Positions 38,955 to 57,659 of a DNA stretch of 64,000 nucleotides are shown here, in pieces. The notes below the pieces were generated by a model that searched no databases, was not told the DNA's origin, and was given only the letters and a program-made list of their open reading frames with translations. Within the stretch, counting starts at the first letter, position 1, and every line of letters starts with the position of its first letter. Origin of the DNA: an uncultured Nitrospiraceae bacterium (GTDB lineage: Bacteria > Nitrospirota > Thermodesulfovibrionia > Thermodesulfovibrionales > SM23-35); the NCBI GenBank assembly GCA_963718855.1, contig CAVRAA010000009.1, positions 430,014 to 494,013 of the forward strand, given 5' to 3'. The translations under genes and the position numbers were made by a program.

Positions 38955-38998
38955 ACTTTATCCGATCGATGTTACAGGGATATTACGGGCGTGTTAAG
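38955..38998 (-). promoter_or_regulatory. Pho-box-like operator on the minus strand (CTTAAC, CGTAAT, TGTAAC in register) + TAAAGT
   Basis: Reverse complements of gttaag (38993-38998), attacg (38982-38987) and gttaca (38971-38976). After 10 nt, the -10 lies at 38960-38955. Confidence 0.55.
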
Positions 38999-39346: not shown

Positions 39347-39850
39347 TTAGTAGTGTACGGTCACACCGACTACGTCGTTGTAAGTTCCGGAAGATACGGA
39401 AGCGCCTGCCAGTAAGCGGGCGTTCACGGTATGCGGCTGGGCTGCGCCGTTGCCGGTATCAGCAACCGGAATGCCGAATGCATAAGTTCCGCCATATCCC
39501 ATATCACCCCATTCTTCCGGATCGCCATTAGGCGTAAAAAGCACATATGGCATGCTCTCTAGGCCCTGCGCAATCGTTCTGTACCCGGCAGCATAGTGCT
39601 GTCCTGCATCAAGGGTAATATTATAGGGCGTCAAATTCGTACAGGTAACAGAAACCCCTCCTGTCATATTGATTTCAGCCCCTGAGTAGGGGCCAAAGGC
39701 TACTGCAGTAGTTGTCACCGAGCATACTGCACCTACAGTGGCGCTCACATCGAGCGTTCCGGTGGCTGTTGCTGCATGCGCTGAACCAAAACCTGCAAGA
39801 CCGAGTGACAGCATCATTGCTGTCGTAAGTAATAGTTTCTTCACTTTCAT
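39347..39850 (-). CDS. spore-coat-U (SCPU) domain pilin, Csu-type
   Basis: Signal peptide, then ...VCSVTTTAVAFGPY ... VSVTCTN..PYNITLDAG ... GTYNDVVGVTVHY. This is the SCPU pattern with the conserved Cys pair. Confidence 0.8.
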   Translation of the reverse strand: MKVKKLLLTTAMMLSLGLAGFGSAHAATATGTLDVSATVGAVCSVTTTAVAFGPYSGAEINMTGGVSVTCTNLTPYNITLDAGQHYAAGYRTIAQGLESMPYVLFTPNGDPEEWGDMGYGGTYAFGIPVADTGNGAAQPHTVNARLLAGASVSSGTYNDVVGVTVHY

Positions 39851-39941
39851 CGTCTTTCTCCTTTTTTCATCTGTTTCAGTTTGTTAGAATCTCCTTTGAC
39901 CCTCCCCTATGGAGAGGGCCAAAGAATGTGTCATTGTTTTG

Positions 39942-42900
39942 TTACTGACAGTTTGCATCTCCAGCGTCTGCTGCGCCGTCGCAGTCATTGTCCAATGTGT
40001 CAGCGCATGTTGCATTGCCGACAGGGCCTTCTACGCCAGGCGTACCTGCCACACAGTTATTGGATGGAGCGCCGTTAGAGCAGGTGATAAGACCCGCCCT
40101 CTTGCATACTCCTACACCGCAGGTTGTCCTTACTGCCGCGATGCTCTCGTCTGTCGAGCCGTCACAGTCGTTATCCTGGCTGTCGCAGACTTCCGCTGAC
40201 GGCGTGCCAGGGGTACAGCTGTTGACCATCTGTCCGTTTGTGCAGGTTGACTGTCCTGATCTTACGCATGCGCCTACGCCGCAGGTTGTCGCTGTGGTGA
40301 GGCCATCGTCAACCGTGCCGTCACAGTCGTCGTCGATGCGGTTACAGGTTTCTGTGCCTGCTGGTTTCGGGGTGCAACTGTCGACCATCTGCCCGCCTGC
40401 ACAGGTTGCCGTGCCGCGCGCTACACATGCGCCTAAACCGCAGGTTGTCCTTACCGCCGCGATGCTCTCGTCTGTCGAGCCGTCGCAGTCATTGTCCTGA
40501 CCGTCGCAGACTTCCGCTGACGGTGAAGCCGGTGTGCAGGTATTGCCTCCCCATAGGCCTGCCGTGCAGGTTTCGGTTCCGGTCCTTGCGCAGCCGCCGA
40601 TACCACAGCTTGTCTGGCGAGTCACGCCATCGTCTACCTGTCCGTCGCAGTCGTCGTCAATGTTATTGCATGTCTCGGCTGCCGAGGCGCCCGGTGTACA
40701 GGTCTGGGCCATCGCTCCGCCGATACATTCATTGTAAGCAGCTCTCTTGCATGCGCCTTCACCGCAGGTTGTGCGGAGCATAACCGGCGCGATGCCTTCG
40801 TCTGTCTGTCCGTCACAGTCATTGTCAGCGCCGTCGCAGACTTCTTCTCCTGTAGGAATACAGGACACGATAGTGAGGCTGCCGTCTACCGATGTGCCGG
40901 GAATCTCATTGGCATTGACATCAACAAGTTCGCTGAAGGTAATATCCAGCAGAGTGCTGCCCAGGTTTGTTCCGGTTGTACATACAAGCTTTACTATGCT
41001 GCCGCTGCCCGCTCCGAGGCCGCTATTCGCCGGGTCATACCCTATAACGCTTATCTGTCCTGCAGACGGGTTGTCATCAAAAGACCACCCTGCGTTTAAC
41101 GAACCAGCGGCGGATGCTGTACAGTTGAGCATGGCAGGATTGTAGCTTACGGTAAACTGGAATGCAGCAACGCCTGCTGCATCACTAATGCTAATCGGGA
41201 TTTCGACCGGGATACCCGGAACATAGCTCACAGTGGGCGTTGAAATCAACCTTGGTTCTACACAGTCGATGTCAGAACCGTCTGCTGCGCCGTCGCAGTC
41301 GTTGTCGATTGAGTCACTGCAGGTCGCGTTTCCGAATGGCCCTTCTGTCTGCGGCGCGTTCGGCACACAGGTGCTGGCAAGCGCATGGTTCGGAAGCACG
41401 CATACCATCTCTCCCGTTGAAGCACATGCACCTACACCGCAGGTTGTCGGCGTCGGCACATAGTTTTCATCAGAGGTGCCGTTGCAGTTTTCGTCTACGT
41501 CGTCACAGTCGTTGTCGGTCCCTGTCGTGGCCCCCGGTGTGCAGTTATCCACCATCACGCCATTCTGGCAGGTTGACTGACCTGTTCTGGCACAAACACC
41601 GACGCCGCAATTTGTGGGGACAGTTGCGATTCCATCATCTACTGTTCCATTGCAATTATTGTCGATACCGTCGCAAACTTCAACGCCTGTCGGCGTACAG
41701 CTGTTGATCGTAACACTTCCGGCAGTTGCTGCACCGGGAATCACCTGTGCATTGACGTCTACAAGTTCACTGAATGTGATATTCATGGGTGTGCTGCTTC
41801 CATATGTACCGATAGCGGAACATACAAGCACAACCAGGCTTCCGCTGCCTGAAGCGATTCCATTATTTGACGGGTCGCTCCCTAAAACAGCTATCTGACC
41901 GGCAATCGGATTATCGTCAAAAGTCCATCCCGCTGTTAAAGCCCCGGTGCCTGCTGCTGTACAGTTGAGCACCGCAGGATCGTAGGTAACGGTGAACTGG
42001 AATGCCGCTATGCCGGTTGCATCGTCAACAGTGATCGGAATGTTGACTGCCGCGCCTCTGTCAGCAGATATCTCAGGGATATCAACTGCCCGAGGCTGAA
42101 CGCAGTTGACGTCTGCGCCGTCTGCTGCGCCGTCGCAATCGTTGTCGGTCGAGTCACCGCAGGTTGCATCACCAAACGGCCCTTCTGTCTGAGGAAGGTT
42201 CGGCCTGCAGGTGTCGGCAAGTGCATGGTTCGGCAGTACGCAGGCCATTTCACCGGTTGATGCACATGCGCCTACTCCGCAGGTTGTCGGAGTCGGCACA
42301 TAGTTTTCATCGGATGTGCCGTTGCAGTTTTCGTCTACGTCGTCACAGTCGTTGTCGGTCCCTGTCGTGGCGCCCGGTGTGCAGTTGTCCACCATCACTC
42401 CGCCCTGGCAGGTTGACTGTCCTGTTCTGGCGCAAACACCTGCGCCGCAGGTGGTCGGAACAGGTGCGATACCGTCATCGGCTGTGCCGTCGCAGTCATC
42501 GTCGATATTGTTGCATGTTTCTGTCGATGGGGTACCCGGTGTGCAGTTGTCCACCATCACGCCGCCCTGACAGGTTGATTCGCCTGTTGCAGCACATGCA
42601 CCCTGACCGCAATTGGTCGGGACTGCAGCGATTCCGTCATCCACCGTGCCGTCGCAGTCGTCATCAATGTTATTGCATATCTCTGTTGCGCCCGGATAAA
42701 CTGCATTGTTGTTATCATTGCAGTCAACTTCACCGCAAGCGCCGCCTTCGATGGCATACGTGTCATTATCAGCATCGGTACATGCGGAACCATTGACAGT
42801 AAATGTGCACCCACCGGTTATTGCAGGAATTGCTTCGTCTATGTACTCATCGCCGGTGTCCGGTGTTCCGTCCGGGTCTACCAGGAAGACAAAACCCTCC

Positions 42901-43322
42901 GGATACCCGCCTGCCATGCCCACTGGGGTGCTGCTTCCAGCGGTTCCCATGACAGTACAGGTAAATGTTGCGATGAGTCCGCTGCCCGGTGCGATGCCGA
43001 CACCGGTTCCATCGTTCAGCAGAATTCTGAAGTCGCCTGCCAGGTCACTGGTAGATATGCCAAATCCAGTGAACAGGCCCCCCCTTGTCGCTGCGGTACA
43101 ATCCAGCACTGCCTGATTAAAATTCAAACCGAGCTGAAGACCGGTCAGCGTGTCCGGCTCGCCGTCAAAATCCCATTCCCCGTAAACAGGGAATTGGACT
43201 GTCGCGCCCGGGTCTGCATTGGGCGGGCAGCCGTTTATCCACAGCTCGTTCGCCGCATACGCATTCGCTGAGAATACAAGAAGCAGGGCAAACAGTATCA
43301 AGAGTATTTTAGCCCTTTTCAT
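39942..43322 (-). CDS. secreted scaffoldin-like protein: three cohesin-like modules separated by MopE-type Cys-rich repeats
   Basis: Signal peptide. Cohesin-like blocks at about 43250-42780, 42100-41690 and 41270-40855 (AAFQFTVTYDPAVLNC...GSGSLVVLVC...). Between and after them lie CNNIDDDCDGTVDDGIA.VPT.CG.G.C..TG.STCQGG repeats. About one residue in ten is Cys. Confidence 0.65.
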   Translation of the reverse strand: MKRAKILLILFALLLVFSANAYAANELWINGCPPNADPGATVQFPVYGEWDFDGEPDTLTGLQLGLNFNQAVLDCTAATRGGLFTGFGISTSDLAGDFRILLNDGTGVGIAPGSGLIATFTCTVMGTAGSSTPVGMAGGYPEGFVFLVDPDGTPDTGDEYIDEAIPAITGGCTFTVNGSACTDADNDTYAIEGGACGEVDCNDNNNAVYPGATEICNNIDDDCDGTVDDGIAAVPTNCGQGACAATGESTCQGGVMVDNCTPGTPSTETCNNIDDDCDGTADDGIAPVPTTCGAGVCARTGQSTCQGGVMVDNCTPGATTGTDNDCDDVDENCNGTSDENYVPTPTTCGVGACASTGEMACVLPNHALADTCRPNLPQTEGPFGDATCGDSTDNDCDGAADGADVNCVQPRAVDIPEISADRGAAVNIPITVDDATGIAAFQFTVTYDPAVLNCTAAGTGALTAGWTFDDNPIAGQIAVLGSDPSNNGIASGSGSLVVLVCSAIGTYGSSTPMNITFSELVDVNAQVIPGAATAGSVTINSCTPTGVEVCDGIDNNCNGTVDDGIATVPTNCGVGVCARTGQSTCQNGVMVDNCTPGATTGTDNDCDDVDENCNGTSDENYVPTPTTCGVGACASTGEMVCVLPNHALASTCVPNAPQTEGPFGNATCSDSIDNDCDGAADGSDIDCVEPRLISTPTVSYVPGIPVEIPISISDAAGVAAFQFTVSYNPAMLNCTASAAGSLNAGWSFDDNPSAGQISVIGYDPANSGLGAGSGSIVKLVCTTGTNLGSTLLDITFSELVDVNANEIPGTSVDGSLTIVSCIPTGEEVCDGADNDCDGQTDEGIAPVMLRTTCGEGACKRAAYNECIGGAMAQTCTPGASAAETCNNIDDDCDGQVDDGVTRQTSCGIGGCARTGTETCTAGLWGGNTCTPASPSAEVCDGQDNDCDGSTDESIAAVRTTCGLGACVARGTATCAGGQMVDSCTPKPAGTETCNRIDDDCDGTVDDGLTTATTCGVGACVRSGQSTCTNGQMVNSCTPGTPSAEVCDSQDNDCDGSTDESIAAVRTTCGVGVCKRAGLITCSNGAPSNNCVAGTPGVEGPVGNATCADTLDNDCDGAADAGDANCQ

Positions 43323-43381
43323 GCTCCCTCCTTTTTCCGTAATTTTTCATAACGTCCTCCATTATTGTTCTATCGTTCTGG

Positions 43382-44902
43382 TTATTCCAGACAGCATGTT
43401 ATTGTTGCGTCTTTGCCCAATGCGTAACGTGTTATCTTCGCAACATCTGTGGCGTTTACGACTCCACTATTGTTTGTATCCGCACATGACTGCACGGCAT
43501 CCTTGCCCAAAGCTATTCTTGTTGCTTTGGCTACGTCAGCGGCAGTAACCGCAGCATTATAGTTAAGATCTCCTACGAGCTGCTTTGCTGCGCCGAAAGA
43601 GGTCCAGCCATATGTCCAGTCATTGTCCGGGTCAACCGCGCCGATAAAGTCAACTGCTTCAAAGAAACCGTCTGCCGGAGGAGTTGCAACCGGGATTGTG
43701 CCGTTTGCAAGCGGTGAACTGGGCGCAGGCGCAAAGTTGGGCATATATTTTTGTGTTGTAGCAACAGCACCGTAAATGTCAATCGGCAGTGGATTGCAGA
43801 GCTGGCAATCAACCGTCTGAAGATTTGTCCATAATCCGGCGGTAATCGCATTCTGGGCAGCGGTATTGTATTGTGCAGCGCCGCCTTTGTTTCCGTAGAC
43901 GCAGCCGTTGCTTAATACTAAGTTTCCGGCATTGATCTGGTTGATTGTTTCCGTATCGTCGACTCTTACGCCGAAGTCTTTGAAGCCGGTAATAACAAAA
44001 TTCTTGATCGTGCCTGCGGTGCCGCGTCTCAGTCTCATGCCAAAGGTGCTTTCCGTTCCATAGGTCGTGTTCGGATCCCCGACAAAGGTCAAATTGTAGA
44101 TCGTGGGGTTTGAGCGCGGCGTATTAGTGTGTCCGAACTCATAGTTGTCAGCCTCTATGCCGGCGTCTGCCTCGTCTGCTCTCTGCGAAACGATAACAAA
44201 CTGGGCTTTACCCTGCCATCCCTCTGTCCAGTCAAAAGAGTCGTCACGACACCAGGTGCCGATCATGTACTTCATATTGACCGTGCCGCCGAACATCTCG
44301 ATGCAGTCATCCTTATTCATAAGCACCTGAACGTGGTCAACCGTCGTGCCATTGCCGACGCCATGGAAGGCGATGCCGTTCAGCTCGCTGGTTTCGGTGA
44401 ACAGATGGCCGGCATACTCAATGCGCACATACTGGAGATGCCCTGAGTTGTCTGCAGGGTCTGATCCACCATATAACCCGGTGGTTCCTTCGATACCGGC
44501 TTCACCGCCCGGAACATTAATCGGGGCATACCCGCCGATAATAACTCCGCCCCAGAGACCTCTGTCCAGGAGCCCGCCGAATTTTACTCTCGATGTGGTA
44601 AAAACAATCGGCTGTGATGAAGTGCCGATTGCATGGATCTTTGCCCCTCTTTCAACAACCAGGGTGCCGATAGTTGACTCGTCGCCGTAAATCTTTACTC
44701 CCGGCTGAATCGTAAGTTCAGCAGGCGCCTTAACAAAAACCGTGCCGCTCAGAAGATACTCGGTATCCGCCGGGGTGCCGGTCGGTCCCAATGTCGTATT
44801 CGTTGTGATGTCGCCGCCGATTGTGGTAATCGCCGACGCGGTGTTCAACGACATAAGGATTAACGACAATGCAATTAAAAATAATGTCCATCCCTTTCGC
44901 AT
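43382..44902 (-). CDS. secreted beta-helix-like protein with C-terminal dockerin-like duplicated Ca-binding loop
   Basis: Start moved to MRKGWTLFLIAL, after AAGGAGAGG. The C-terminus is GDLNYNAAVTAADVAKATRIALG ... ADTNNSGVVNATDVAKITRYALG, i.e. two DxNxNxxxxxxD-helix segments. Confidence 0.6.
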   Translation of the reverse strand: MRKGWTLFLIALSLILMSLNTASAITTIGGDITTNTTLGPTGTPADTEYLLSGTVFVKAPAELTIQPGVKIYGDESTIGTLVVERGAKIHAIGTSSQPIVFTTSRVKFGGLLDRGLWGGVIIGGYAPINVPGGEAGIEGTTGLYGGSDPADNSGHLQYVRIEYAGHLFTETSELNGIAFHGVGNGTTVDHVQVLMNKDDCIEMFGGTVNMKYMIGTWCRDDSFDWTEGWQGKAQFVIVSQRADEADAGIEADNYEFGHTNTPRSNPTIYNLTFVGDPNTTYGTESTFGMRLRRGTAGTIKNFVITGFKDFGVRVDDTETINQINAGNLVLSNGCVYGNKGGAAQYNTAAQNAITAGLWTNLQTVDCQLCNPLPIDIYGAVATTQKYMPNFAPAPSSPLANGTIPVATPPADGFFEAVDFIGAVDPDNDWTYGWTSFGAAKQLVGDLNYNAAVTAADVAKATRIALGKDAVQSCADTNNSGVVNATDVAKITRYALGKDATITCCLE

Positions 44903-45115
44903 TTTTTCCTCTCCTTCTTTTTTTAAAGGTTCATACATCGAAAGACCATCCCCAGGAAACATCGATACGCATCACCCCTCCTTTCTGATAAGCAGACCAG
45001 GAAACACATCACCCCCCTTCAAAGCATCTTCATTTATATATGGATAGACCGGACGCAGCCTGCTTCATCGTGCGGCAAACTGATTGAGACACCGCGCACG
45101 AAGTCTTTAAGGAAC

Positions 45116-45181
45116 ATGATACCCGGATGTCTTTACATGACGATGACACTATTGTGACAATCAGGTTATCGATTCATTACC
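45116..45181 (-). promoter_or_regulatory. Pho-box-like array of five half-sites on the minus strand (GGTAAT, GATAAC, TGTCAC, TGTCAT, TGTAAA) + TATCAT
   Basis: The plus-strand hexamers start at 45176, 45165, 45154, 45143 and 45132, exactly 11 bp apart. After 10 nt, the -10 lies at 45121-45116. Confidence 0.6.
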
Positions 45182-45283
45182 ATACCTCAGAGGCGCGTGA
45201 AGCGGCTTCAGATAAGGCGGGACAAGGATTGCCTGTAATTTTACGAAAGCAGATTTATCAGGAAGGAAGCAGATGTCATCGAA

Positions 45284-45327
45284 TTTAACACGACTGTAAC
45301 ATCCCTGTAACATGACTCTGTTATTTT
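45284..45327 (+). promoter_or_regulatory. Pho-box-like operator (TTTAAC, TGTAAC, TGTAAC in register) + TATTTT, facing the chaperone-usher genes
   Basis: Half-sites start at 45284, 45295 and 45306. -10 candidate at 45322-45327. Confidence 0.55.
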
Positions 45328-45393
45328 ATGGCGTCATGGCAATTCAGCTCATTGGGCACATCTCTATGCTGCCCGCTGAATCTGCAGACATTA

Positions 45394-45493
45394 CCCTCAC
45401 CCTTGCCCTCTCCCCTCAAGGGAGAGGGAACGTAAGAATGAGGGGAGGGGATTAAGGGGAACTCGTGAAGAACCCTGCGGCAGAGACCGCAGG
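45394..45493. repeat. composite of three REP types in the 5' leader of the chaperone gene
   Basis: ccctcacccttgccctctcccctcaagggagaggg (compare 8365-8401), gaggggaggggatt (KGGxGG-like) and gaagaaccctgcggcagagaccgcaggg (compare 6887-6913). Confidence 0.5.
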
Positions 45494-45529
45494 GCGTAAT
45501 ATTTATTAATATCTCAACGGAGGTGTACC

Positions 45530-46321
45530 GTGTATCGAAATTTTATGCTTGTAACGTTCACCATATTATTCTTTCTGATGCATTCCCATGCCGTTGCAGG
45601 CTCGTTTAAGGCTGTACCGGTGAGGCTCTTCGTGGATGTGAAATCCAATACTGCTGTCCTCAAGATTATCAATCAGGGGGATGACAGGGTAACGGTGCAG
45701 CTTGACGCCAGGAGTTGGCGGCAGGATGAAACCGGGCAGGACATGTATGAGGACACCGGAGACATCATCTTCTTTCCCAAGATCGCGCATATTGAAAAAA
45801 ACGAGGAGCGGATAATTCGCATAGGATACAAAGGAAAACAGGGATCTGTCGAAAAAACATACCGGTTATTCATGCAGGAACTGCCTGTCACCAAACCAGG
45901 CGGGATGGCGCTCCAGCTGGCCTTGACGATAACAATTCCCATTTTTGTAGAGCCGGAAAAAGAAGAGAAGGCGGGCTGGACCGCGGAGACCGCAGAATTC
46001 TCAGAGGAGACACTCAGGATAAAGGTCAGAAACAGCGGCAACAGGCACATCGTGGTCAGCAAGATCACGGCGGTCGGGCTCGATGAAGCCGGCAGGGAGG
46101 TATTCTCAAAAGATGCGGCCGGATGGTATACCCTCGCGCGTACGTCAAGAATATATGCCGTCCCGATACCGTATGAAGAATGCCTGAAGGTGACAACGAT
46201 CAAGGTGAAAACCGATCTGGAGAAAGACAGCAGGACCTTCACCCTGGATGTGGGTCAAGAGATGTGCACCCGGAAACCGGAGAGTGAAAAAAACAGAATA
46301 AAGGAGAAGGCATCGCATTAG
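45530..46321 (+). CDS. periplasmic pilus chaperone (PapD/CsuC-like)
   Basis: Signal peptide, then an Ig-like N-domain pattern (F.A.PVRLF.......AVLKI.N.GD..V.VQ) and YRLFMQELP. Confidence 0.8.
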   Translation: MYRNFMLVTFTILFFLMHSHAVAGSFKAVPVRLFVDVKSNTAVLKIINQGDDRVTVQLDARSWRQDETGQDMYEDTGDIIFFPKIAHIEKNEERIIRIGYKGKQGSVEKTYRLFMQELPVTKPGGMALQLALTITIPIFVEPEKEEKAGWTAETAEFSEETLRIKVRNSGNRHIVVSKITAVGLDEAGREVFSKDAAGWYTLARTSRIYAVPIPYEECLKVTTIKVKTDLEKDSRTFTLDVGQEMCTRKPESEKNRIKEKASH

Positions 46322-46367
46322 CAAAGGTCATGATTCCGAATTGCTATGCCAGAAAAAAAGACACATC

Positions 46368-48694: not shown

Positions 48695-49130
48695 TGTTCT
48701 CGTTATAGTGTTTGCGTTAATTGTGGCCGCAGCGGCACAGGGCGAAGCATGCTCTATTACAACCTCACCTGCCCATTTCGGGAATTATGATCCGACGGCA
48801 TCCGCGCCTCTCGATACGGTTGGGAATATCAGCGTAACCTGTGATTCCGGCACCCCGTTCACCATAAAATTGGATTCAGGGCAGAATTCGACTGGAGGGT
48901 TTGACAGACAGATGCGCTCTTCGGCAGGTGATTTCTCGCTCGATTACAACCTCTTCAGAGATTCTGCCCGCACAGAAGTCTGGGGGGACGGCACCGGCAG
49001 CACCTTCATCCAGGCAGGCGTCGGTACCGGAATACCAGCCCAGTTCAATCTCTACGGCCGCATTTCCGGACGACAGAATGTCAAGGCAGATATCTATAAT
49101 GATTCGATCATCGTAACGGTGGAATGGTGA
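48681..49130 (+). CDS. spore-coat-U (SCPU) domain pilin subunit
   Basis: ACSITTSPAHFGNYD ... ISVTCDSGTPFTIKLDSG ... DYNLFRDSARTEVWG ... YNDSIIVTVEW. Confidence 0.85.
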   Translation: MKCISVLVIVFALIVAAAAQGEACSITTSPAHFGNYDPTASAPLDTVGNISVTCDSGTPFTIKLDSGQNSTGGFDRQMRSSAGDFSLDYNLFRDSARTEVWGDGTGSTFIQAGVGTGIPAQFNLYGRISGRQNVKADIYNDSIIVTVEW

Positions 49131-49200
49131 GAGAACAGTAAGCCAGAGCTTGCTTTGAAGGCTGGAAAAAGCTTTCCGCCCCGCACACAAGAAAAGAGAG

Positions 49201-49254
49201 TTAACAAAATATTAACCCGATCTTCATAACCACGTAACAAAAATAATGTAAGTT
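49201..49254 (+). promoter_or_regulatory. weaker Pho-box-like array (TTAACA, TTAACC, ..., CGTAAC) upstream of the atypical regulator
   Basis: TAAC cores end at 49205, 49216 and 49238 (offsets 11 and 22). TAAGTT lies 10 nt after the last. Confidence 0.35.
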
Positions 49255-49346
49255 ATCCGGCATGCTGTCAGAATCTTTGAAAGAAAACGGCTTATTGTGC
49301 GCTGGGATTCATACATCCTGTAGTGATAGGGGAAGCGTTTTTTTCT

Positions 49347-50087
49347 ATGGCTAAAGCAACCTATATCCTGCTTCTGAGTGATAACCCGCATACGGCAAAA
49401 AACCTCACCGGTACATTGGCCAGGGAGGGTTTTATTGTTGATACAGTTGCCGATGCTGAAAACGTCCTCTCAAGCATAAAAAAGAGGACGTATGATCTGA
49501 TAGTGCTGAATCCGGTGTCGCTCGGGATGAAGGGCCTGGACCTCTGCCGCACCCTGAAAAATGACACGCAAACAGCAAAAATACCGATTATCGTCATCGC
49601 TGTCACCAAAGATGAAGTCGACACAGTGCTCAGTCTCGAAATCGGCGCCGATGATTATATGACCGAACCGGTGAATATCAAGGAACTGGCAGCAAGGATA
49701 AACGCAGTAATGAGAAGAACACGGACAAAGGTGACTGATATGAAGATTCTGCAGAGAGGAGAAATTGTCATAGACACGGAAAAATGCGCAGTGCGAAAAA
49801 ACGGCAGGAAAATTGTATTAACTGCTCAGGCCTACAAACTATTATGCTTCCTTGCAGAAAGCCAGGGGAAGGTATTCAGCCGTGAACAGCTCCGGGATGA
49901 GGTCTGGAACCGGACCACCTTCGTCGGATTGAGAACGATTGACGTGCATATAAGAAAATTGAGAGAAAAACTGGAGCAAAGCCCTTCGCATCCTGAATAT
50001 ATTAAGACATTCCGTGGCATCGGATATTTCTTTGATCGTGGTCAGCCCTCTCAAAAAGACGATGAATCGCAGAATACGCTGCAATAA
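49347..50087 (+). CDS. OmpR/PhoB-family regulator with degenerate (non-phosphorylatable) receiver domain
   Basis: Aligned by eye to the PhoB at 22307: DD becomes SD, phospho-Asp ILDLMLPG becomes VLNPVSLG, T becomes A, and SKPF becomes TEPV. The winged helix is conserved (RTIDVHIRKLR ... FRGIGYFF). Confidence 0.8.
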   Translation: MAKATYILLLSDNPHTAKNLTGTLAREGFIVDTVADAENVLSSIKKRTYDLIVLNPVSLGMKGLDLCRTLKNDTQTAKIPIIVIAVTKDEVDTVLSLEIGADDYMTEPVNIKELAARINAVMRRTRTKVTDMKILQRGEIVIDTEKCAVRKNGRKIVLTAQAYKLLCFLAESQGKVFSREQLRDEVWNRTTFVGLRTIDVHIRKLREKLEQSPSHPEYIKTFRGIGYFFDRGQPSQKDDESQNTLQ

Positions 50088-50098
50088 ATTTACACAAT

Positions 50099-50142
50099 TG
50101 TAATATTCATTTCACAATCCTGCAATAAATTGCCTTTAGACT
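50099..50142 (+). promoter_or_regulatory. Pho-box-like operator (TGTAAT, TTTCAC, TGCAAT in register) + TAGACT
   Basis: Half-sites start at 50099, 50110 and 50121. -10 candidate at 50137-50142. Confidence 0.45.
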
Positions 50143-50184
50143 AGCAGAGAATGCCCCAAAGCCTTAACTTCAAATACGGAGGAA

Positions 50185-51673
50185 ATGATGAAAACAGTGA
50201 GGACATTTTTGATAATTTTCGCCCTGCTGCTCATGTCAGCGAATGCGTTTGCAGCAACCGTTTCTATTCCGGGTACATATGCAGATGCAAGTGCGCCTGT
50301 GCAACTCCCAATTAATGCACAGTGGGATTTCGCGCTGACCGCATTTCAATTTACCATTACTTACAACCCGTCGGTGCTCACTTGCACCGGAGCATCATTA
50401 GGAGATGTATTATCGGCAGCCGGAGGATGGTCTGTCAGTGTGAATACCCTTTCAGGTCAGATAGGCGTATTAGGGAATGATGCAAATGGAATCGGCATCT
50501 CACCAGGTAGTGGAAATCTCGTAAAACTTCAGTGCACCGTTGTCGGGAACGAGGGCGACAGCACATCCCTTCAATTCACGGGCACAAACGTATTGGTTGA
50601 TACTGATATAAACGAGTATGTGCCTGCAACCACTGCGGGAATACTCACAATTGGCGCATGCGTACCCTCGGAAGAACGATGCGACAGGCTGGACAATGAC
50701 TGCGATGGGCAGGTGGATGAGGAGATTGCCCCTGTGCCGACCACCTGCGGCATTGGTGCATGCTCAACTACCGGCCAAGCAACCTGTCAAAATGGTCAGC
50801 TGGTTGACAGCTGCCGACCTCCTGCTGAGGGGCCTTTTGGCGATCCGACATGCGACGATCTGGCGGATAATGACTGCAACGGATTTACCGATAGTAACGA
50901 TCCGAACTGCATTGAATGTGTCCCCTCCGAAGAACTATGCGACGGGCTGGACAATGACTGCGACGGTCAGGTGGATGAGGAGATTGCCCCTGTGCCGACC
51001 ACCTGCGGCGTTGGTGTGTGCTCCTCAGGAGGCCAGTTAATCTGCGACGGGGGACAGATGATTGATACCTGCACCCCGGGCATGCCGCAGGCTGAAGGAC
51101 CTTCCGGAAGCAGAACGTGCAGTGACAGCCAGGGACAATGACTGCGATGGTTCCATTGATTCTTCCGATCCCGGCTGCCTCGTGCAGCCAACAGGAATGG
51201 ACCGCTGGGTCGGGAAATGGTTCAGCATTAAAAGGACAATGAAGGGCAGCGCTTTTCGCGCGACTGATTCAAAATTTTTAACGGACAAAAGCAGCGGGAG
51301 TGGCTATCTATACATCTGGGGATGGGACCTGAATGCCGAACTATTGCGATTTGATTACTATGAATTCATGGAATACGACGATATCTGGCATGTGAACACC
51401 GACGCTTTTCACTTCTTTGCCGGCACTGATGACAAATTCCTCTTCTGGTACAACAGTGCAGATGCCACCTCTGAAGCAGGATTAAACGGATTGATCGACG
51501 GAAAGGTGAAAGACGGAGAATTGCAGAGCGCCAGCATCAAGACATTAGGTGGTCTGTATCTCGATGTCAGTGACGATTATACCCGTTACTCCGCCGGCGA
51601 ACAGACGCTGAACGGAAGGATGATCGATGCGTCGAAAGTACCGGTGCCATTCAGCGTAATAATACCGCGATGA
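50185..51673 (+). CDS. secreted cohesin-like + Cys-rich-repeat protein with conserved C-terminal domain; 1-nt frame change near 51130-51135
   Basis: ORF 50185-51141 ends ...TCSDSQGQ*. Removing one G from caGGGac gives TCSDSQDNDCDGSIDSSDPGC, which continues into ORF 51062-51673. Confidence 0.65.
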
Positions 51674-51722
51674 ACGATAAATACAATTTATCCAACAAAA
51701 GCATATATTGTGTGGAGGGAGC

Positions 51723-54700
51723 ATGAAAATAACTAAAATAGCATTGATTCTGTTCATTTTATTGGTAGGTTCAGCCCAAGGATTTGGAGCAAGTGTCTCA
51801 ATCTCCAACAGTGCTGCAGACGCAGGTGCAGCCGTCCAGATTCCCATTAACGGCAGTTTTGATTTTCCGCTGACATCGTGCCAGTTCACAATCACGTACA
51901 ATCCTTCCGTGCTGAATTGCACTGGTGCAGTATCAGGAGACTTAACAGGCGGTTGGACAGTTTCTACAAATGCATTGACAGGCGAGATGAGAGTGCTTGT
52001 GAACGATGGAACCGGAAATGGTATTGCTCCAGGAAGCGGTAATCTGGTTAAGCTCAATTGCACTGCTGCCAGCAATCCCGGGGCCTCCACCCCCGTAACA
52101 TTTAGCGGGGTAAATGTGTTAGTGGACATAGACATAAACGAATACATTCCTACAACAACGCCGGGAACCTTTACGATCAATGGCGGTTGCATCCCTACAA
52201 CCGAAGTATGCGATGGAGTAGACAATGACTGCGATGGCCAGATTGACGAGGGCGTAAAGAACACCTATTATCGCGATGTCGATAACGACACCTTCGGTAA
52301 CCCCAACGATACAACCCAGGCTTGCACCATTCCCCAGGGCTATGTCTCCAACAATACCGACTGCAATGACAGCAACCATGCAGTAAAGCCCGGTGCGACA
52401 GAAACCTGTAACAATATCGATGACAACTGTGATAGCACAATCGACAATGGCATCGCATCAACACCAACCACCTGTGGTGTAGGCTTTTGTGCCTCAACAG
52501 GCCAGTCGGCCTGCCAAGGAGGCCAGATGGTGGATACCTGCACTCCGGGGACTCCGCAGACAGAAGGACCCTTCGGCAACGCTACCTGCTCGGACTCATC
52601 AGACAACGACTGTGACGGTGCAACCGATGCGGCTGATTCAGGATGCATACAGCAGTGCGTGCCCTCGACCGAAGTATGCGACGGTGTGGACAATGACTGC
52701 GACCAGCAGACGGATGAAGGCATCGCTGCTGTGCCGACTACCTGCGGAATAGGCGCTTGTCAGAGGTTAGGACAGAGCACCTGCCAGTCCGGCGAGATGG
52801 TTGACAGTTGTACCCCGGGCACCTTGTCATCAGAAACCTGCAATGGTATTGACGACGATTGTGACGGAACAGTTGATGATGGGGTAAAAAACACCTATTA
52901 CCGCGACGCTGATAATGACACTTTTGGAAACCTCAATAATACAACACAGGCTTGCACTCTGCCCCAGGGCTATGTCTCCAACAATACCGACTGCAATGAC
53001 AGCAACCCTGCAGTAAAGCCCGGTGCGACAGAAACCTGTAACAATATCGATGACAATTGCGATGGCCAGACTGATAACGGGATCGCGTCAACACCGACCT
53101 CCTGTGGAACAGGCGCTTGTGCCTCAACCGGCCAGTCAATCTGCCAGGGTGGCCAGATAATCAATACCTGCACATCGGGTAACCCTCAGACTGAAGGGCC
53201 CTTTGGGAATGCCACCTGTTCGGACTCCTCGGATAACGACTGTGACGGCACAACTGATGCGGCTGATTCAGGATGTGTGGAGGTCTGCACTCCTTCCACC
53301 GAAGTCTGTGACGGTGTGGATAATGACTGTGATGATCAAGTAGATGAAGGGGTAAAAAACACTTATTACCGCGACGCTGATAATGACACCTTTGGAAACC
53401 CTAATGATACAACGCAGGCATGTACCCTTCCGCAGGGCTATGTTTCCAATAACACCGACTGCAATGACAGCAACCCTGCGGTAAAACCCGGTGCAATAGA
53501 AACCTGTGACAGCGTAGACAATAATTGCGATGGCCAGACAGACAACGGCATCGCTTCTGTACCGACCACCTGCGGCGTAGGCGCATGTGCTTCTGCAGGC
53601 CAGTCAATCTGCCAGGGTGGCCAGATGGTCGATACCTGCAAATCAGGGAACCCTCAGACTGAAGGGCCCTTTGGGAATGCGACCTGTTCGGACTCAACGG
53701 ATAACGACTGTGACGGCTCGACCGATGCATCTGATTCAGGGTGCGCTCAACAGTGTACTCCTTCTACTGAAGTATGTGATGGCGTAGACAACGACTGTGA
53801 CAGTCAGATTGATGAGGACATCGCTGCTGTGCCGACTACCTGCGGCGTAGGCGCTTGTGCTGCAAATGGCCAGAGCACCTGTCAGGCCGGACAAATGGTT
53901 AACAGTTGCATTCCGGGGACTCCTCAGGCCGAGGGTCCGTTCAGCAATGCTACCTGCTCGGATTCATCAGATAATGACTGTGATGGCTCAACTGACACTG
54001 CCGATTCAGGATGCGTTCAGCAGTGCACTCCTTCCACAGAGGTCTGCGATGGGGCAGATAACGACTGTGACGGTCAGATTGATGAAGACATCGCTGCTGT
54101 ACCGACCACCTGCGGCGTAGGCGCATGTGCTTCTACAGGCCAGTCAGTCTGCCAGGGTGGTCAGATGATCAATACCTGCACACCAAGTAACCCTCAGACT
54201 GAAGGGCCGTTTGGCAATCCGACCTGTGCAGACTCCTCGGATAACGACTGTGACGGCACAACCGATGCATCTGATTCAGGATGTGTTGAGGTCTGCACTC
54301 CTTCTACTGAAGTATGTGATGGCGTAGACAACGACTGTGACGGTCAGATTGATGAAGACATCGCTTCTGTACCGACGACCTGCGGCGCAGGCGCTTGTGC
54401 TTCTGCAGGCCAATCAATCTGCCAAGGGGGCCAGATGGTCAATACCTGCACCCCGGGTGACCCTCAGACTGAAGGTCCGTTTGGTAATCCGACCTGTTCG
54501 GACTTATCCGACAACGACTGCGATGGTGCAGTTGACACGGCTGATTCTGGATGTGTAGAGGTCTGCGCTCCTTCCACCGAAGTCTGTGACGGTCTGGATA
54601 ATGACTGTGATGGCCAAGTTGATGACGACATCGCTGCCGTACCGACCACCTGTGGAGTGGGCATCTGTGCTGCAAATGGCCAGAGCACCTGTCAGGCCGG

Positions 54701-56054
54701 ACAAATGGTTAACAGTTGCATTCCGGGGACTCCTCAGACCGAGGGTCCGTTCGGCAATCCGACCTGCTCGGATTCATCAGATAATGACTGTGATGGCTCA
54801 AGCGATGCATCTGATTCAGGATGCGGTCAGCAGTGCACTCCTTCCACAGAGATCTGCGATGGGATAGACAATGACTGTGACAGTCAGATTGATGAAGACA
54901 TCGCTGCCGCGCCGACTACCTGCGGCGTAGGCGCTTGTGCTTCTACAGGCCAATCAATCTGCCAGGGTGCCCAGATGGTCAATACCTGCACACCGGGTAA
55001 CCCTCAGACTGAAGGTCCGTTTGGTAATCCGACCTGTTCGGATTCATCAGATAATGACTGTGACGGCTCGACCGACGCATCTGATTCAGGATGCGTTCAG
55101 CAGTGCACTCCTTCCACAGAGGTTTGCGATGGGGTAGATAACAACTGTGACGGTCAGATTGACGAGGATATTGCTGTTGTGCCGACAACCTGTGGGGTAG
55201 GCGCTTGCACTGCAAATGGCCAGAGCACCTGTCAGGCCGGACAAATGGTTAACAGTTGCATTCCGGGCACTCCGTCACCGGAAATATGTAACACTATCGA
55301 TGACAATTGCGACGGCACGGTCGATAACGGCGTCGCATCGACTCCGACGACCTGCGGGATAGGCGCCTGTGCTTCTACCGGCCAGATGGTCTGCCAGTCC
55401 GGCCAAATGGTTGACACCTGCACTCCGGGCGCTCCCCAGACAGAAGGGCCGTTGGGCAACCCCACCTGCTCGGATTCCGCTGACAACGACTGCGACGGCT
55501 CAACCGATGCATCTGATTCCGGATGTTTGATTCAACCGGCTGATATGAGTCAATGGACCGGAAAATGGTTCAGCATCAAGGAACGGGGGTCTCAGACTGC
55601 CGGTCGGTCGGGTCAGCAGGGGATTACCTTTAGTGTGCCTGACGCCAAGTTCGGGAAAGAGAAAAACAGCGGGAGCGGAAATGGATATATGCACATCTGG
55701 AACTGGGACCCCGGCACCAGGGCACTGCATTTCGATTACTATACCTTTATCGAAGATAAAGGCACATGGGATACCTACACCGATACTCTACAGTTTTTTG
55801 CAGGAACGGATATGAAATTTTTGTTCCTTTACCATAGATCCCATAACAATCAGGTAACCGCTTTTAACGGGGAGATTGAAGGTAAGATAAAAAAGGGAGC
55901 GTTACAAGGCGCAACTCTTAAAACATTCGGCGGATATTACTTGGATATCAGTGACGACGAAACCTCTTACTCCGCTGGGAACGAAGCCATGACCGGAAAA
56001 ATGATTGATGCATCGAAGGTGCCGGTGCCGTTCAATGTAATAATACCGCGCTAA
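51723..56054 (+). CDS. giant secreted protein: N-terminal cohesin-like module, about 1,100 aa of MopE-type / DNDCDG Cys-rich repeats, conserved C-terminal domain
   Basis: Start moved to MKITKIALILF, after GGAGGGA. Contains YYRD.DNDTFGN...DCNDSNPAVKPGA.E.C units and six consecutive 90-aa units. The C-terminus is shared with 50185-51673 (ends VPVPFNVIIPR). Confidence 0.7.
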   Translation: MKITKIALILFILLVGSAQGFGASVSISNSAADAGAAVQIPINGSFDFPLTSCQFTITYNPSVLNCTGAVSGDLTGGWTVSTNALTGEMRVLVNDGTGNGIAPGSGNLVKLNCTAASNPGASTPVTFSGVNVLVDIDINEYIPTTTPGTFTINGGCIPTTEVCDGVDNDCDGQIDEGVKNTYYRDVDNDTFGNPNDTTQACTIPQGYVSNNTDCNDSNHAVKPGATETCNNIDDNCDSTIDNGIASTPTTCGVGFCASTGQSACQGGQMVDTCTPGTPQTEGPFGNATCSDSSDNDCDGATDAADSGCIQQCVPSTEVCDGVDNDCDQQTDEGIAAVPTTCGIGACQRLGQSTCQSGEMVDSCTPGTLSSETCNGIDDDCDGTVDDGVKNTYYRDADNDTFGNLNNTTQACTLPQGYVSNNTDCNDSNPAVKPGATETCNNIDDNCDGQTDNGIASTPTSCGTGACASTGQSICQGGQIINTCTSGNPQTEGPFGNATCSDSSDNDCDGTTDAADSGCVEVCTPSTEVCDGVDNDCDDQVDEGVKNTYYRDADNDTFGNPNDTTQACTLPQGYVSNNTDCNDSNPAVKPGAIETCDSVDNNCDGQTDNGIASVPTTCGVGACASAGQSICQGGQMVDTCKSGNPQTEGPFGNATCSDSTDNDCDGSTDASDSGCAQQCTPSTEVCDGVDNDCDSQIDEDIAAVPTTCGVGACAANGQSTCQAGQMVNSCIPGTPQAEGPFSNATCSDSSDNDCDGSTDTADSGCVQQCTPSTEVCDGADNDCDGQIDEDIAAVPTTCGVGACASTGQSVCQGGQMINTCTPSNPQTEGPFGNPTCADSSDNDCDGTTDASDSGCVEVCTPSTEVCDGVDNDCDGQIDEDIASVPTTCGAGACASAGQSICQGGQMVNTCTPGDPQTEGPFGNPTCSDLSDNDCDGAVDTADSGCVEVCAPSTEVCDGLDNDCDGQVDDDIAAVPTTCGVGICAANGQSTCQAGQMVNSCIPGTPQTEGPFGNPTCSDSSDNDCDGSSDASDSGCGQQCTPSTEICDGIDNDCDSQIDEDIAAAPTTCGVGACASTGQSICQGAQMVNTCTPGNPQTEGPFGNPTCSDSSDNDCDGSTDASDSGCVQQCTPSTEVCDGVDNNCDGQIDEDIAVVPTTCGVGACTANGQSTCQAGQMVNSCIPGTPSPEICNTIDDNCDGTVDNGVASTPTTCGIGACASTGQMVCQSGQMVDTCTPGAPQTEGPLGNPTCSDSADNDCDGSTDASDSGCLIQPADMSQWTGKWFSIKERGSQTAGRSGQQGITFSVPDAKFGKEKNSGSGNGYMHIWNWDPGTRALHFDYYTFIEDKGTWDTYTDTLQFFAGTDMKFLFLYHRSHNNQVTAFNGEIEGKIKKGALQGATLKTFGGYYLDISDDETSYSAGNEAMTGKMIDASKVPVPFNVIIPR
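53750..55370 (+). repeat. six consecutive ~270-bp (90-aa) coding tandem repeats inside the giant gene
   Basis: The 50-mer ggccagagcacctgtcaggccggacaaatggttaacagttgcattccggg recurs starting at 53868, 54678 and 55218. The offsets of 810 and 540 are multiples of 270. Confidence 0.7.
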
Positions 56055-56192: not shown

Positions 56193-56627
56193 TTAAGAAG
56201 ACTGCTTGATAAATTCCTGCACCATGGATTTGATATTCTCTCGGATAACACGCGTCTTCGCCATTTTTTCCTCATGGCTTCCGACAAACGATGAAGGATC
56301 TTCAAATGACCAGTGGAGTCTCTTCGTTACACCCGGGAAAACCGGACATCGTTGAGCAGTTGCCTCATCACAGACACTGATTACATAGTGGTACAATTTA
56401 CCGGCCTTCACCAAATCAAACACCGTGCTCGCCTGCTTGGCTGAGATATCAATCCCTTCTTCTTTCATGGCTTCAACCGCAAGGGGATTTAATTCTCTTG
56501 CCTCAAATCCTGCACTTTCCGCCTCGAAGCGGTCTTCTCCGTAGTAATTGAGGAACGCTTCAGCCATCTGACTTCTTGCTGAATTATGAACACACACGAA
56601 TAATACCTTAATTGTATTTTCCCCCAT
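56193..56627 (-). CDS. arsC: arsenate reductase / LMW-PTP family, paralogue of 11104-11538
   Basis: [25 protein letters not shown]... is collinear with the first copy over all 144 aa. Confidence 0.85.
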
Positions 56628-56633
56628 TCTTCA

Positions 56634-56666
56634 AGAATACCAGAGAAATGTTACAGGAATATTACA
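56634..56666 (-). promoter_or_regulatory. Pho-box-like operator + -10 on the minus strand (TGTAATattccTGTAAC, 10 nt, TATTCT)
   Basis: Reverse complements of attaca (56661-56666) and gttaca (56650-56655). -10 at 56639-56634. ATG at 56627 (6 nt later, no SD). Confidence 0.6.
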
Positions 56667-56728
56667 TGCCCAACGACTAAGGCCCGTAGAATAGTACCGG
56701 CAGGGTGCCTTTCAGTTCAGGCAGCGCT

Positions 56729-57277: not shown

Positions 57278-57393
57278 ATTCGTGCCCCTTCTATTCTCTG
57301 TTCGTATTCGTTCATCCGCAGATATGTATTTTGGCAGCCACCTTGGACTGCGTTCCCGCAGTCTCGGAGCAGCATGCATTTTCAGTGGGCAAC

Positions 57394-57639
57394 CTATGTA
57401 TCTTTGAATTCATTTTCCGCTGAATGGACATTACATTGTTCCTTCATCCTCTTGATTACGAGGACAGACAGGAAATCCTTTATACGTGCATGTTCCTTTA
57501 AGGACATCAGTTCATTTTCATACAGCTGTCTGAGGAAATCCTCACGCATGCCGAGGTCTGTTGCAAGATAATGAATTGCTGACAGGTGCTGTCGTCTTTC
57601 GAATTCTGTGTCATATAAGATTGTTGTTGTCACTATCAT
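57394..57639 (-). CDS. hypothetical small protein (81 aa)
   Basis: An ORF immediately downstream of metK on the same strand. No motif recognised. Confidence 0.35.
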   Translation of the reverse strand: MIVTTTILYDTEFERRQHLSAIHYLATDLGMREDFLRQLYENELMSLKEHARIKDFLSVLVIKRMKEQCNVHSAENEFKDT

Positions 57640-57659
57640 TCCCCCATACGCATGAAATA

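Follow-up and report, generated by a model that had tools for sequence, protein, structure and literature searches.

The closest described relatives of the locus reported here are the cellulosomes of Clostridia, the cohesin and dockerin modules found outside cellulosomes, and a family of phosphate-starvation surface lipoproteins that accompany TonB-dependent transporters. Cohesin-dockerin pairs classically organise glycan-degrading enzymes, and they are already known outside cellulosomes, the cohesin of Archaeoglobus fulgidus being an example. Such non-cellulosomal modules, reportedly surveyed by Peer et al. in 2009, are to our knowledge widespread, with few having a known partner, purpose or physiological context. 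Here we analysed a stretch of 64,000 nucleotides (hereafter the window) from an uncultured Nitrospiraceae bacterium (assembly GCA_963718855.1, contig CAVRAA010000009.1, positions 430,014 to 494,013), in which genes for cohesin-bearing proteins built from MopE-type repeats (hereafter scaffoldins) lie beside the gene of a β-helix protein that ends in a dockerin. On balance, we consider it probable that this neighbourhood is a phosphate-starvation (Pho) island in which a dockerin-cohesin tether replaces the lipid anchor of an ElpS-like transporter partner.

Caulobacter crescentus makes the surface lipoprotein ElpS (CC0170) only when starved of phosphate; the ElpS gene lies beside that of the TonB-dependent receptor CC0171, and the wide co-occurrence of the two genes was noted by the authors (PMC2996285). 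The ElpS homologue BT4056 of Bacteroides thetaiotaomicron, encoded beside BT4055, belongs to the pectin-lyase superfamily; a preprint on the 'lids' of TonB-dependent transporters places BT4056 homologues next to a transporter in 621 genera and reports that a Flavobacterium relative, Fjoh_0546, is found in the exoproteome on phosphate depletion (bioRxiv 10.1101/2023.03.17.533168). The parts of the present locus are all of known kinds. In the searchable literature, we found no description of a dockerin on an ElpS/BT4056-type transporter partner, of cohesins on MopE-repeat stalks, or of a system of this type within a Pho island in a diderm bacterium.

The dockerin-bearing β-helix protein and its cohesin neighbours

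The gene at 43382-44902 on the minus strand encodes a protein of 506 amino acids (aa) with a signal peptide, a right-handed β-helix of the PF28492 (Beta_helix_4) family, a C-terminal type-I-like dockerin and the terminus ...CCLE. PF28492 is the precomputed annotation of exactly this protein and covers its first ~430 residues. As the definition of a type I dockerin we took a score above the family cut-off together with two tandem segments of ~22 residues, each consisting of a 12-residue EF-hand-like loop (D/N at positions 1, 3, 5 and 12) followed by a helix. In the Pfam scan, the tail matched Dockerin_1 (PF00404) with 26.5 bits against a cut-off of 22.9 (residues 464-513 of the 526-aa open reading frame (ORF), 43382-44902), and it contains two tandem loop-helix segments, with the loops DLNYNAAVTAAD and DTNNSGVVNATD (DxNxNxxxxxxD and DxNxSxxxNxxD). 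An AlphaFold2 model of the 506-aa protein, with a predicted local distance difference test score (pLDDT) of 94, shows a right-handed β-helix and places helices at 454-464 and 484-494 behind the dockerin loops, and among solved structures the tail matched the dockerin 2y3n_B (E=1.3e-3). The type I dockerin layout that had been proposed for the gene upstream of the three-cohesin protein is therefore borne out by the Pfam score, the solved structure and the modelled helices. The tail was retained in 12 of 12 aligned close homologues (50-72% identity), including the linker Cys and the terminal CCxE. The invariant Cys residues of the dockerin are C473, in the linker between the segments, and C503-C504 at the end (alignment A2).

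A protein search returned 2008 homologues for the PF28492 family, whose members vary in their C-terminal appendages: T9SS domains, SLH, FN3, MopE repeats or a dockerin. The N-terminus of the dockerin protein, MRKGWTLFLIALSLILMSLNTASA followed by ITT, is a plain signal peptide in which no lipobox Cys was found, whereas PF28492 homologues of Caulobacterales carry the lipobox LTAC, LVAC or LAAC. From this difference in sequence, the dockerin looks like a replacement anchor for the β-helix protein.

Cohesins are carried by three proteins. The 1126-aa scaffoldin (39942-43322, minus strand) has a signal peptide and three cohesins (approximately residues 25-180, 410-545 and 690-825) set between disulfide-rich, acidic MopE/DNDCDG repeats. 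The 1443-aa scaffoldin (51723-56054, plus strand) has one cohesin, MopE repeats and a 160-aa calycin-like C-terminal domain, and the small scaffoldin (50185-51673, plus strand) has a cohesin, MopE repeats and a C-terminal domain of the same calycin-like kind. The small scaffoldin had been described as a single protein; its cohesin and MopE matches hold, but in the assembly it is two ORFs separated by a frame break at 51132-51134, and would be ~496 aa long if restored. Pfam matches to Cohesin (PF00963) and to the MopE motif (PF11617) reached 87.6 bits (two stretches) and 152 bits (eight stretches) in the 1126-aa protein, 34.2 and 44 bits in the ORF at 50185-51141 (plus strand), and 37.2 and 295 bits (14 stretches for MopE) in the protein at 51723-56054 (plus strand). 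The PF00963 whole-protein cut-off of 24.1 bits was thus passed by three of three proteins, accounting for four modules with model coverage 2-139, and all three also passed the PF11617 cut-off of 27 bits. The fifth module, at the N-terminus of the 1126-aa protein, scored 21.6 bits alone, under the Pfam cut-off, but reached 82.5 bits against a hidden Markov model (HMM) of its four sister modules, where the best of 1000 shuffles scored 11.3; by sequence it is clearly homologous to the other four.

A profile of all five modules matched the solved cohesins 2xdh_A (the best, E=3.4e-5), 5nrm_A and 4ums_A, the first of which, labelled only 'COHESIN' in the search output, we take to be the A. fulgidus cohesin. 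The original prediction counted three cohesin modules in the first protein and one in each of the others, and this total of five is supported by Pfam, by the sister-module HMM and by the solved cohesins; the cohesin sequence patterns that it quoted are visible in alignment A6, and a Pfam check of the cohesin, dockerin, MopE, SCPU, chaperone and usher families reproduced all of its domain calls. In alignment A6, each cohesin module has two internal invariant Cys residues and one at its boundary. Invariant Cys residues are unusual in cohesin and dockerin modules, and a disulfide-locked complex of the two is conceivable from the sequences.

The identification of the DNDCDG repeats with the MopE-type motif is confirmed by the PF11617 scores. 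The 1443-aa scaffoldin has 23 DNDCD-type motifs, which recur in ~90-aa units across much of the protein, and the 14 stretches noted above match the Pfam MopE model. A Cys content of about one residue in ten, as first proposed, applies to the repeat parts of the two long scaffoldins (10.1-10.5%, with 10.5% in the 1126-aa protein) but not to these proteins as a whole (7.3-8.1%). Both are very acidic, with D+E at ~14% and K+R at ~2% (13.6% and 2.2% for the whole 1126-aa protein). The repeats remained under the cut-off of NCBIfam NF033662, the 'acidic double-disulfide repeat' (~25 vs 41 bits). They share with MopE of Methylococcus capsulatus, and with PF11617 and NF033662, the DNDCDG / DCNDxNxxxxPGAxExC motif in many tandem copies; unlike in MopE, the repeats here act as linkers or stalks between cohesins, and the copper site of MopE is not shown to lie within the motif. 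Cohesin, MopE repeats and the calycin-like domain were the only domains recognised on the scaffoldins, none of which had a carbohydrate-binding module that we could find.

The pairing of the two modules was followed across genomes by searching the window and loci L001-L084, translated in six frames, with dockerin-tail and cohesin HMMs; later loci were taken from close homologues. Six lineages were recovered: the window, L001/L003 (a Nitrospiraceae metagenome-assembled genome, MAG), L002/L004 (a Nitrospirota MAG), L086, L087/L088 and L089-L091. A cohesin gene adjoins the dockerin-bearing gene in all six, indicating that the adjacency is not by chance, and within the translations searched a dockerin was present only on the β-helix gene. 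Neither cohesin nor dockerin was found in the 78 other genome-scan loci with a dockerin-less homologue, nor in L083/L084. Additionally, nine Desulfobacterota-type homologues hold the β-helix and MopE repeats in one chain (PF28492 + PF11617), which is the pattern expected if cohesin and dockerin here join the same two partners non-covalently. In the window, the β-helix protein has no lipid anchor and carries a dockerin, with the three-cohesin gene next to it and the two one-cohesin genes further away. Binding between cohesin and dockerin would, judging from the modules, be dependent on Ca2+.

An alternative is that the two modules do not bind one another, the cohesin and dockerin homologues being independent structural or adhesive domains whose adjacency stems from shared regulation only. 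The modest dockerin score of 26.5 bits, the degenerate first loop (DLNYNAAVTAAD) and the unusual conserved Cys residues in both modules are compatible with this. However, presence and absence are strictly coupled, in six of six lineages on the one hand and in the 78 dockerin-less loci and L083/L084 on the other, an otherwise conserved protein bears the dockerin in place of another anchor, and the same two partners are fused in sister lineages. We regard non-binding modules as highly improbable.

The locus resembles the cellulosomes of Clostridia in its matches to cohesin HMMs and solved cohesins, in its dockerin with duplicated calcium loop and helix, and in having a multi-cohesin scaffoldin gene beside a dockerin gene. 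It differs in its diderm host, in having no carbohydrate-binding module, glycoside hydrolase cargo or SLH/sortase anchor, and in its Cys-rich MopE linkers, its transporter and Pho regulon context and the conserved Cys residues in both modules. It does not amount to a cellulosome, since the sole local dockerin protein is a β-helix without a glycan-enzyme match and the scaffoldins are without a carbohydrate-binding module or cell-wall anchor that could be found. With non-cellulosomal cohesin and dockerin modules it shares a place outside cellulose degradation; unlike for those, a partner, a cargo family and a regulon can all be proposed.

A related alternative takes the locus as a degrader resembling a small cellulosome, with the β-helix as a polysaccharide or polyanion lyase or hydrolase held in multiple copies and its products entering via the transporter encoded nearby; phosphate regulation would then be incidental, or the polymer would itself be phosphorylated (teichoic-acid-like material, extracellular DNA or a phosphoglycan). 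The classical role of cohesin-dockerin pairs is consistent with such a degrader, as are the best structural matches of the β-helix, which are polysaccharide-active β-helices. These Foldseek matches (tailspikes, GH87, alginate epimerases and lyases) are nevertheless only generic, with E at least 3.5e-3 and TM-scores at most 0.34, and Foldseek found no close solved relative. The β-helix carries conserved acidic clusters that, from the sequence, could be catalytic, and a GH1 gene flanks the related operon of L083 and is present in the window at 26590-27831. Yet in Pfam and NCBIfam scans Dockerin_1 was the only Pfam family matched by the dockerin protein, no NCBIfam model for a glycan enzyme exceeded its threshold, and, as noted above, no scaffoldin had a carbohydrate-binding module. 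ElpS, moreover, had no enzymatic activity of its own in one study (PMC2996285). A degrader also overlaps the tether reading if the polymer is the phosphorus source, and as a separate explanation we consider it unlikely.

The transporter operon and the phosphate context

The minus-strand gene run that contains the dockerin gene extends past 39347 through a DsbA-like gene, a small lipoprotein gene (37177-37752, lipobox LLTSC, no family assignment), TonB (36465-37175), ExbB (35761-36414), two ExbD genes (35349-35780 and 34940-35359) and a 995-aa TonB-dependent transporter (31916-34903), all on the minus strand. TonB, ExbB and ExbD were assigned by Pfam, as were the CarboxypepD_reg, Plug and barrel domains of the transporter, which also scored 277 bits for TIGR01782. 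The β-helix and transporter genes thus share one minus-strand run in the window. The dockerin protein had been taken for a generic tagged cargo; instead, it is a PF28492 β-helix protein whose partner is a TonB-dependent transporter with TonB-ExbBD, encoded outside the region on which the original prediction was based.

In a genome scan with one genome per species, which yielded 80 loci, we counted those in which a homologue of a given window gene lies no more than 10 kb from the β-helix gene. A transporter homologue was present in 72 of the 80, in groups including Acidobacteriota, Latescibacterota, Poribacteria, Myxococcota, Bdellovibrionota and Caulobacterales, and homologues of the small lipoprotein, a PhoB-like regulator and a PhoR/PnpS-like kinase were present in 36, 39 and 22, respectively. 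A small lipoprotein homologue is found in L083/L084 and L087 too, and the gene order TonB-ExbB-ExbD-ExbD is common to the window, L001, L083 and L087. Synteny shows that the conserved core comprises the transporter with TonB-ExbB-ExbD-ExbD, the small lipoprotein and the secreted PF28492 β-helix protein. The small lipoprotein, a conserved companion of the β-helix gene, is likely a third component of ElpS-type systems.

Given that the fold class, the adjacency to a transporter and the taxonomic spread are alike, the β-helix protein of the window is very likely of the ElpS/BT4056 type, an assignment that we infer from the literature and not from direct sequence comparison. PF28492 includes members in Bacteroides/Phocaeicola, where cluster names read only 'hypothetical protein', and lipoprotein members in Caulobacterales; no Caulobacter protein was among the best 120 matches of a homologue search seeded with a Caulobacterales homologue. 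As with ElpS/CC0171, BT4056/BT4055 and Fjoh_0546, a β-helix surface protein is encoded beside a non-SusC TonB-dependent transporter in a context of phosphate starvation. In contrast with those proteins, which are N-terminal lipoproteins, the one in the window has no lipobox, carries a C-terminal dockerin and has cohesin scaffoldin genes alongside.

From its gene content, the whole neighbourhood is a phosphate-acquisition or phosphate-starvation island. Its core consists of a PHO4 transporter (20596-21591, minus strand), PhoU_div (21584-22201, minus strand), a regulator that scores best as PhoB (22307-23005, 273.6 bits), a kinase that scores best as PnpS (23005-24792, PnpS/PhoR-like, 401 bits vs a cut-off of 400) and a porin (24896-26164) with a Pho-box-like site at 24848. 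Among relatives, PsiE and PhoX are present in L001 and PstSCA-type genes in L002. In L083 (Nitrospirae) the order is PHO4, PhoU_div, regulator, kinase, porin, a β-helix gene without dockerin, small protein, TonB, ExbB, ExbD, ExbD, transporter and GH1. The window holds the flanking genes of L083, including GH1, at 20596-27831, indicating that the β-helix/TonB/transporter operon has moved and been elaborated, and the L083 layout looks ancestral. A DDE transposase (12599-14380, plus strand) and a PIN-domain gene (15155-15547, plus strand) lie ~6-8 kb to the left of the first gene of the Pho island and may be relevant to the rearrangements relative to L083.

The intergenic repeats that had been proposed as operators are real direct repeats with an 11-bp period; they are Pho-box-like and are plausible response-regulator sites. 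The clearest, CTGTAACATCCCTGTAACAT at 45294-45313, lies in the divergent control region (45133-45316) within four tandem 11-bp units (45274-45316) that face the chaperone gene of a pilus cluster, while a TGTCAC-N5-TGTCAT element (45138-45159) faces the dockerin gene. Across the window, CTGTAACATCCCTGTAACAT-type pairs with at most three mismatches number 8 against 0.01 expected, and a half-site scan gave 11 Pho-box-like repeats against 0.32 expected. Most of these sites are just upstream of genes, namely both LMWPc genes, the porin, the small-lipoprotein/TonB genes, the DsbA-like gene and the chaperone. The motif recurs in relatives: in L004 it precedes both a pstS-like gene and the chaperone gene, in L083 the porin gene and in L087 the small-lipoprotein gene. 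pstS is a classic PhoB target. In the window, the regions that precede the dockerin gene, the regulator gene at 49347 and the small cohesin gene hold only more degenerate pairs with an 11-bp period. Judging from these sites, control by phosphate is likely for the transporter, pilus and DsbA-like genes and no more than plausible for the cohesin and dockerin genes.

The regulator at 49347-50087 (plus strand), an orphan response regulator that we refer to as RR2, had been called PhoB-like. It belongs to the OmpR/PhoB family, but its 192.8 bits fall under the PhoB equivalog cut-off of 296, and the PhoB/PhoR-like pair lies instead at 22307-24792. In L087, which lacks the pilus, an orthologue of RR2 (61% identical) is located between the dockerin gene and two cohesin genes, implying that RR2 belongs with the scaffoldin genes, of which, as far as gene order can tell, it may be a specific activator.

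In front of each of two paralogous genes for low-molecular-weight phosphatase/ArsC-like proteins (LMWPc), a Pho-box-like pair lies 21 bp from the start codon, at 11064-11083 for the gene at 11104-11538 (plus strand) and at 56648-56667 for the gene at 56193-56627 (minus strand). Possibly, the detoxification of arsenate is coupled here to phosphate starvation. The second copy ends a run of HMA_2, a 273-aa protein, a P-type ATPase with an N-terminal HMA_2 domain, S-adenosylmethionine (SAM) synthetase (MetK) and LMWPc at 56193-63313 on the minus strand. In L002/L004 and L086 the same run stands directly upstream of the dockerin gene. L089 shows only SAM synthetase and LMWPc, with three other genes before the dockerin gene, and in the window the run and the dockerin gene are kept apart by an inverted pilus/cohesin block (45530-56054).

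This run could be taken to complete an island for metal handling, in which the MopE repeats bind copper or another metal and the transporter imports the metal or a metallophore. In favour are the name of PF11617, which refers to a putative metal-binding motif, the strong acidity of the stalks and the position of the run beside the dockerin gene in three of the loci just described, with MetK and LMWPc near it in L089. However, the ATPase has Cation_ATPase_N and Cation_ATPase_C, which mark type II ATPases and not those of the heavy-metal type, and the acidic DNDCDG motifs would suit structural calcium sites as well as copper sites. The context is phosphate-related (PHO4, PhoU_div, PhoB/PnpS-like genes, PsiE, PhoX and PstSCA), with Pho-box-like sites shared with pstS, and no MopE protein was noted next to the β-helix/transporter pair in the 72 of 80 loci that have it, although MopE was not screened for there. 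Metal handling is, in our view, very unlikely.

Returning to the tether reading, phosphate limitation would probably act through the PhoB/PnpS-like pair and the Pho-box-like 11-bp repeats to drive expression, with RR2 probably a second input for the cohesin genes. After export, the DsbA-like oxidoreductase would aid disulfide formation in the repeats with ~10% Cys, and the dockerin would plug into cohesins in a calcium-dependent manner. Up to three β-helix units would be held near the transporter on the acidic, disulfide-knotted MopE/DNDCDG stalk of the 1126-aa protein, and one on each of the other scaffoldins, the cohesin-dockerin tether standing in for lipid anchoring or for the direct β-helix-MopE fusion of Desulfobacterota. 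The β-helix would be a lid or substrate-capture partner of the adjacent transporter, as proposed for the ElpS/BT4056 family, and the complex would capture or process a phosphorus source for the transporter, our best guess being a phosphorus compound or mineral. The Csu-type pilus operon, with its own Pho-box-like site, would have been added in a sub-lineage, and the pilus is most likely a co-expressed adhesion organelle, not a part of the scaffold. A fuller version, which we put forward only tentatively, is a phosphate-induced extracellular complex in which ElpS-like copies on calcium-binding stalks feed the transporter while archaic pili of the same regulon hold the cell to a phosphorus-bearing surface.

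Several points weigh against the tether. The sole evidence that cohesin and dockerin pair is, at the level of sequence, their co-occurrence, and the locus has five cohesins for one dockerin, so that other cargo must exist or some cohesins stand idle. No cell anchor was identified for the scaffoldins, and a β-helix that acts as a lid on a transporter and yet is tethered to a protein of >1000 aa would make an odd geometry. The equation of PF28492 with the ElpS/BT4056 family draws on fold class, taxonomic spread and transporter adjacency. A strict Pho box was not found upstream of the dockerin gene in the window and five relatives, the window having only the TGTCAC/TGTCAT pair. Moreover, the frame breaks in two genes could mean that this strain is losing parts of the system. 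Taken across genomes, the pattern nonetheless fits a dockerin-cohesin tether better than any of the four alternatives considered here and below.

The locus offers a testable case, given that the dockerin is on a family with a known genetic partner (the transporter) and a known trigger (phosphate starvation), that cohesins are encoded next door and that fused relatives exist. If the tether reading is true, non-cellulosomal cohesin-dockerin pairs would gain a physiological role, and the anchors of transporter 'lids' would be evolutionarily interchangeable between a lipid, a direct fusion and a plug and socket. Replacement of a lipid tether by a long flexible scaffold would bear on the role of ElpS/BT4056 proteins and on their need to sit on the transporter. 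The modules are also candidate orthogonal cohesin-dockerin pairs from a diderm bacterium, with conserved Cys residues that possibly form disulfides.

The Csu-type pilus genes and the calycin-like domain

A PapD/CsuC-like chaperone (45530-46321, plus strand; PapD_N 54.7 bits, CsuC 5d6h_A E=3.4e-6), an outer-membrane usher (46368-48694, plus strand; Usher 105.5 bits) and two SCPU pilins are encoded among the scaffoldin genes. The first pilin (39347-39850, minus strand; 167 aa) matched PF05229 with 82.7 bits, and the second, which is CsuA/B-like (48681-49130, plus strand; 149 aa), with 122 bits and CsuA/B 5d6h_B at E=7e-9; an SCPU pilin match to the CsuE pilin domain was also obtained (E=2.5e-8). 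The chaperone, usher and two pilins of the predicted Csu-type set are thus present, but the usher is frame-broken in the assembly by a 1-nucleotide (nt) shift in a T run at 46544-46546. These two single-domain SCPU proteins were the only ones recognised, and no two-domain CsuE-like tip adhesin was found in the region.

The set resembles the Csu pili of Acinetobacter baumannii in its SCPU pilins (CsuA/B, CsuE domain), its CsuC-like chaperone, its usher and an adjacent OmpR-family regulator. Csu pili are regulated by the OmpR-family protein BfmR. Unlike those of A. baumannii, the genes here specify two single-domain pilins, no two-domain tip adhesin and a frame-broken usher, have a Pho-box-like promoter, and are accompanied by a regulator that appears to go with the cohesin genes and not with the pilus. 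The chaperone gene has a long 5' leader, and within it, at 45380-45445, lies a G/C-rich inverted repeat (ccctctcccctcaagggagaggg … gaggggagggg), which could be REP-like or a regulatory hairpin.

The original prediction coupled the cohesin scaffoldins physically to the pilus, displayed on it or assembled by the chaperone and usher as one organelle. In L004 the dockerin protein, three-cohesin scaffoldin, pilin, chaperone, usher, pilin, regulator and cohesin protein are encoded in this order on one strand, and the same genes are present in the window at 60-66% protein identity, indicating that the pilus linkage is conserved; the block from the chaperone to the 1443-aa protein (45530-56054) is inverted in the window relative to L004. 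A pilin gene directly 3' of the three-cohesin gene and a Pho-box-like site upstream of the chaperone gene are likewise found in both. The linkage was seen in the window, in L004 and in the fragment L085, and a scan of metagenomes with the usher returned a single 1.25-kb fragment of a close relative. The embedding of the locus in a pilus cluster accordingly describes this sub-lineage only: contiguous cohesin, dockerin and transporter genes are present in L001 and L087 in the absence of pilin, chaperone and usher genes. Neither pilin carries a cohesin or dockerin that could be found. Chaperone-usher systems, furthermore, are known for the export of pilin-fold subunits, not of Cys-rich proteins of >1000 aa.

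The one candidate link between scaffold and pilus was the 160-aa C-terminal domain of the 1443-aa and small scaffoldins (55570-56054 and 51190-51673), which matched no Pfam family. Its model (pLDDT 91) is a closed antiparallel β-barrel of ~10 strands, with weak calycin-like matches in Foldseek (nitrobindin, a bacterial lipocalin and avidin), and not the incomplete Ig fold of a pilin. We therefore rejected this domain as a chaperone-usher pilin domain that would make the scaffoldins pilus tip subunits. Physical coupling to the pilus is, in our view, quite unlikely. The gene comparisons point to a pilus that is probably an accessory gained by a sub-lineage and co-expressed under phosphate limitation, not a required part of the scaffold.

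An exhaustive profile search placed the C-terminal domain in a family of 131 representatives, including 75 stand-alone secreted proteins of ~180 aa and 49 C-terminal domains of longer secreted proteins. The longer carriers that were examined are cohesin/MopE proteins, multihaem cytochromes, a β-helix protein and Ig-rich proteins. Going by the model, the domain may bind a small hydrophobic ligand or act as an anchor.

Frame breaks and the DsbA-like gene

The small scaffoldin is interrupted by a 1-nt frame break within a G run at ~51132-51134, and the usher by the break in a T run described above; the L004 orthologue of the usher is an intact frame of 793 codons. Both breaks lie within homopolymers, so assembly error is as likely as decay. 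Elsewhere in the window, a GT21 glycosyltransferase is apparently split in two ORFs (28593-29811) and PhoH is present only as a 138-aa fragment (31237-31653). This set of broken genes suggests either indel errors in the assembly or ongoing gene decay.

The DsbA-like gene, encoding a periplasmic thiol-disulfide oxidoreductase, lies at 37969-38877 on the minus strand with a Pho-box-like site at 38969-38988, and it contains an in-frame TGA at 38395-38397. The TGA falls exactly at the first Cys of the DsbA-like CxxC (…SDYQ[TGA]PYC…), and the frame stays open for ~140 codons beyond it. With TGA read as Cys, the product matched Thioredoxin_4 (E=2e-29) and DSBA (E=7e-23). The gene, which shares an operon with proteins whose repeats contain ~10% Cys, is a candidate for a selenocysteine oxidoreductase gene, or else a pseudogene. 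Two hairpins follow the TGA, GCGGC-UUGA-GCCGC from 14 nt downstream and then CUCCAGC-AGGU-GCUGGAG (z = -2.0).

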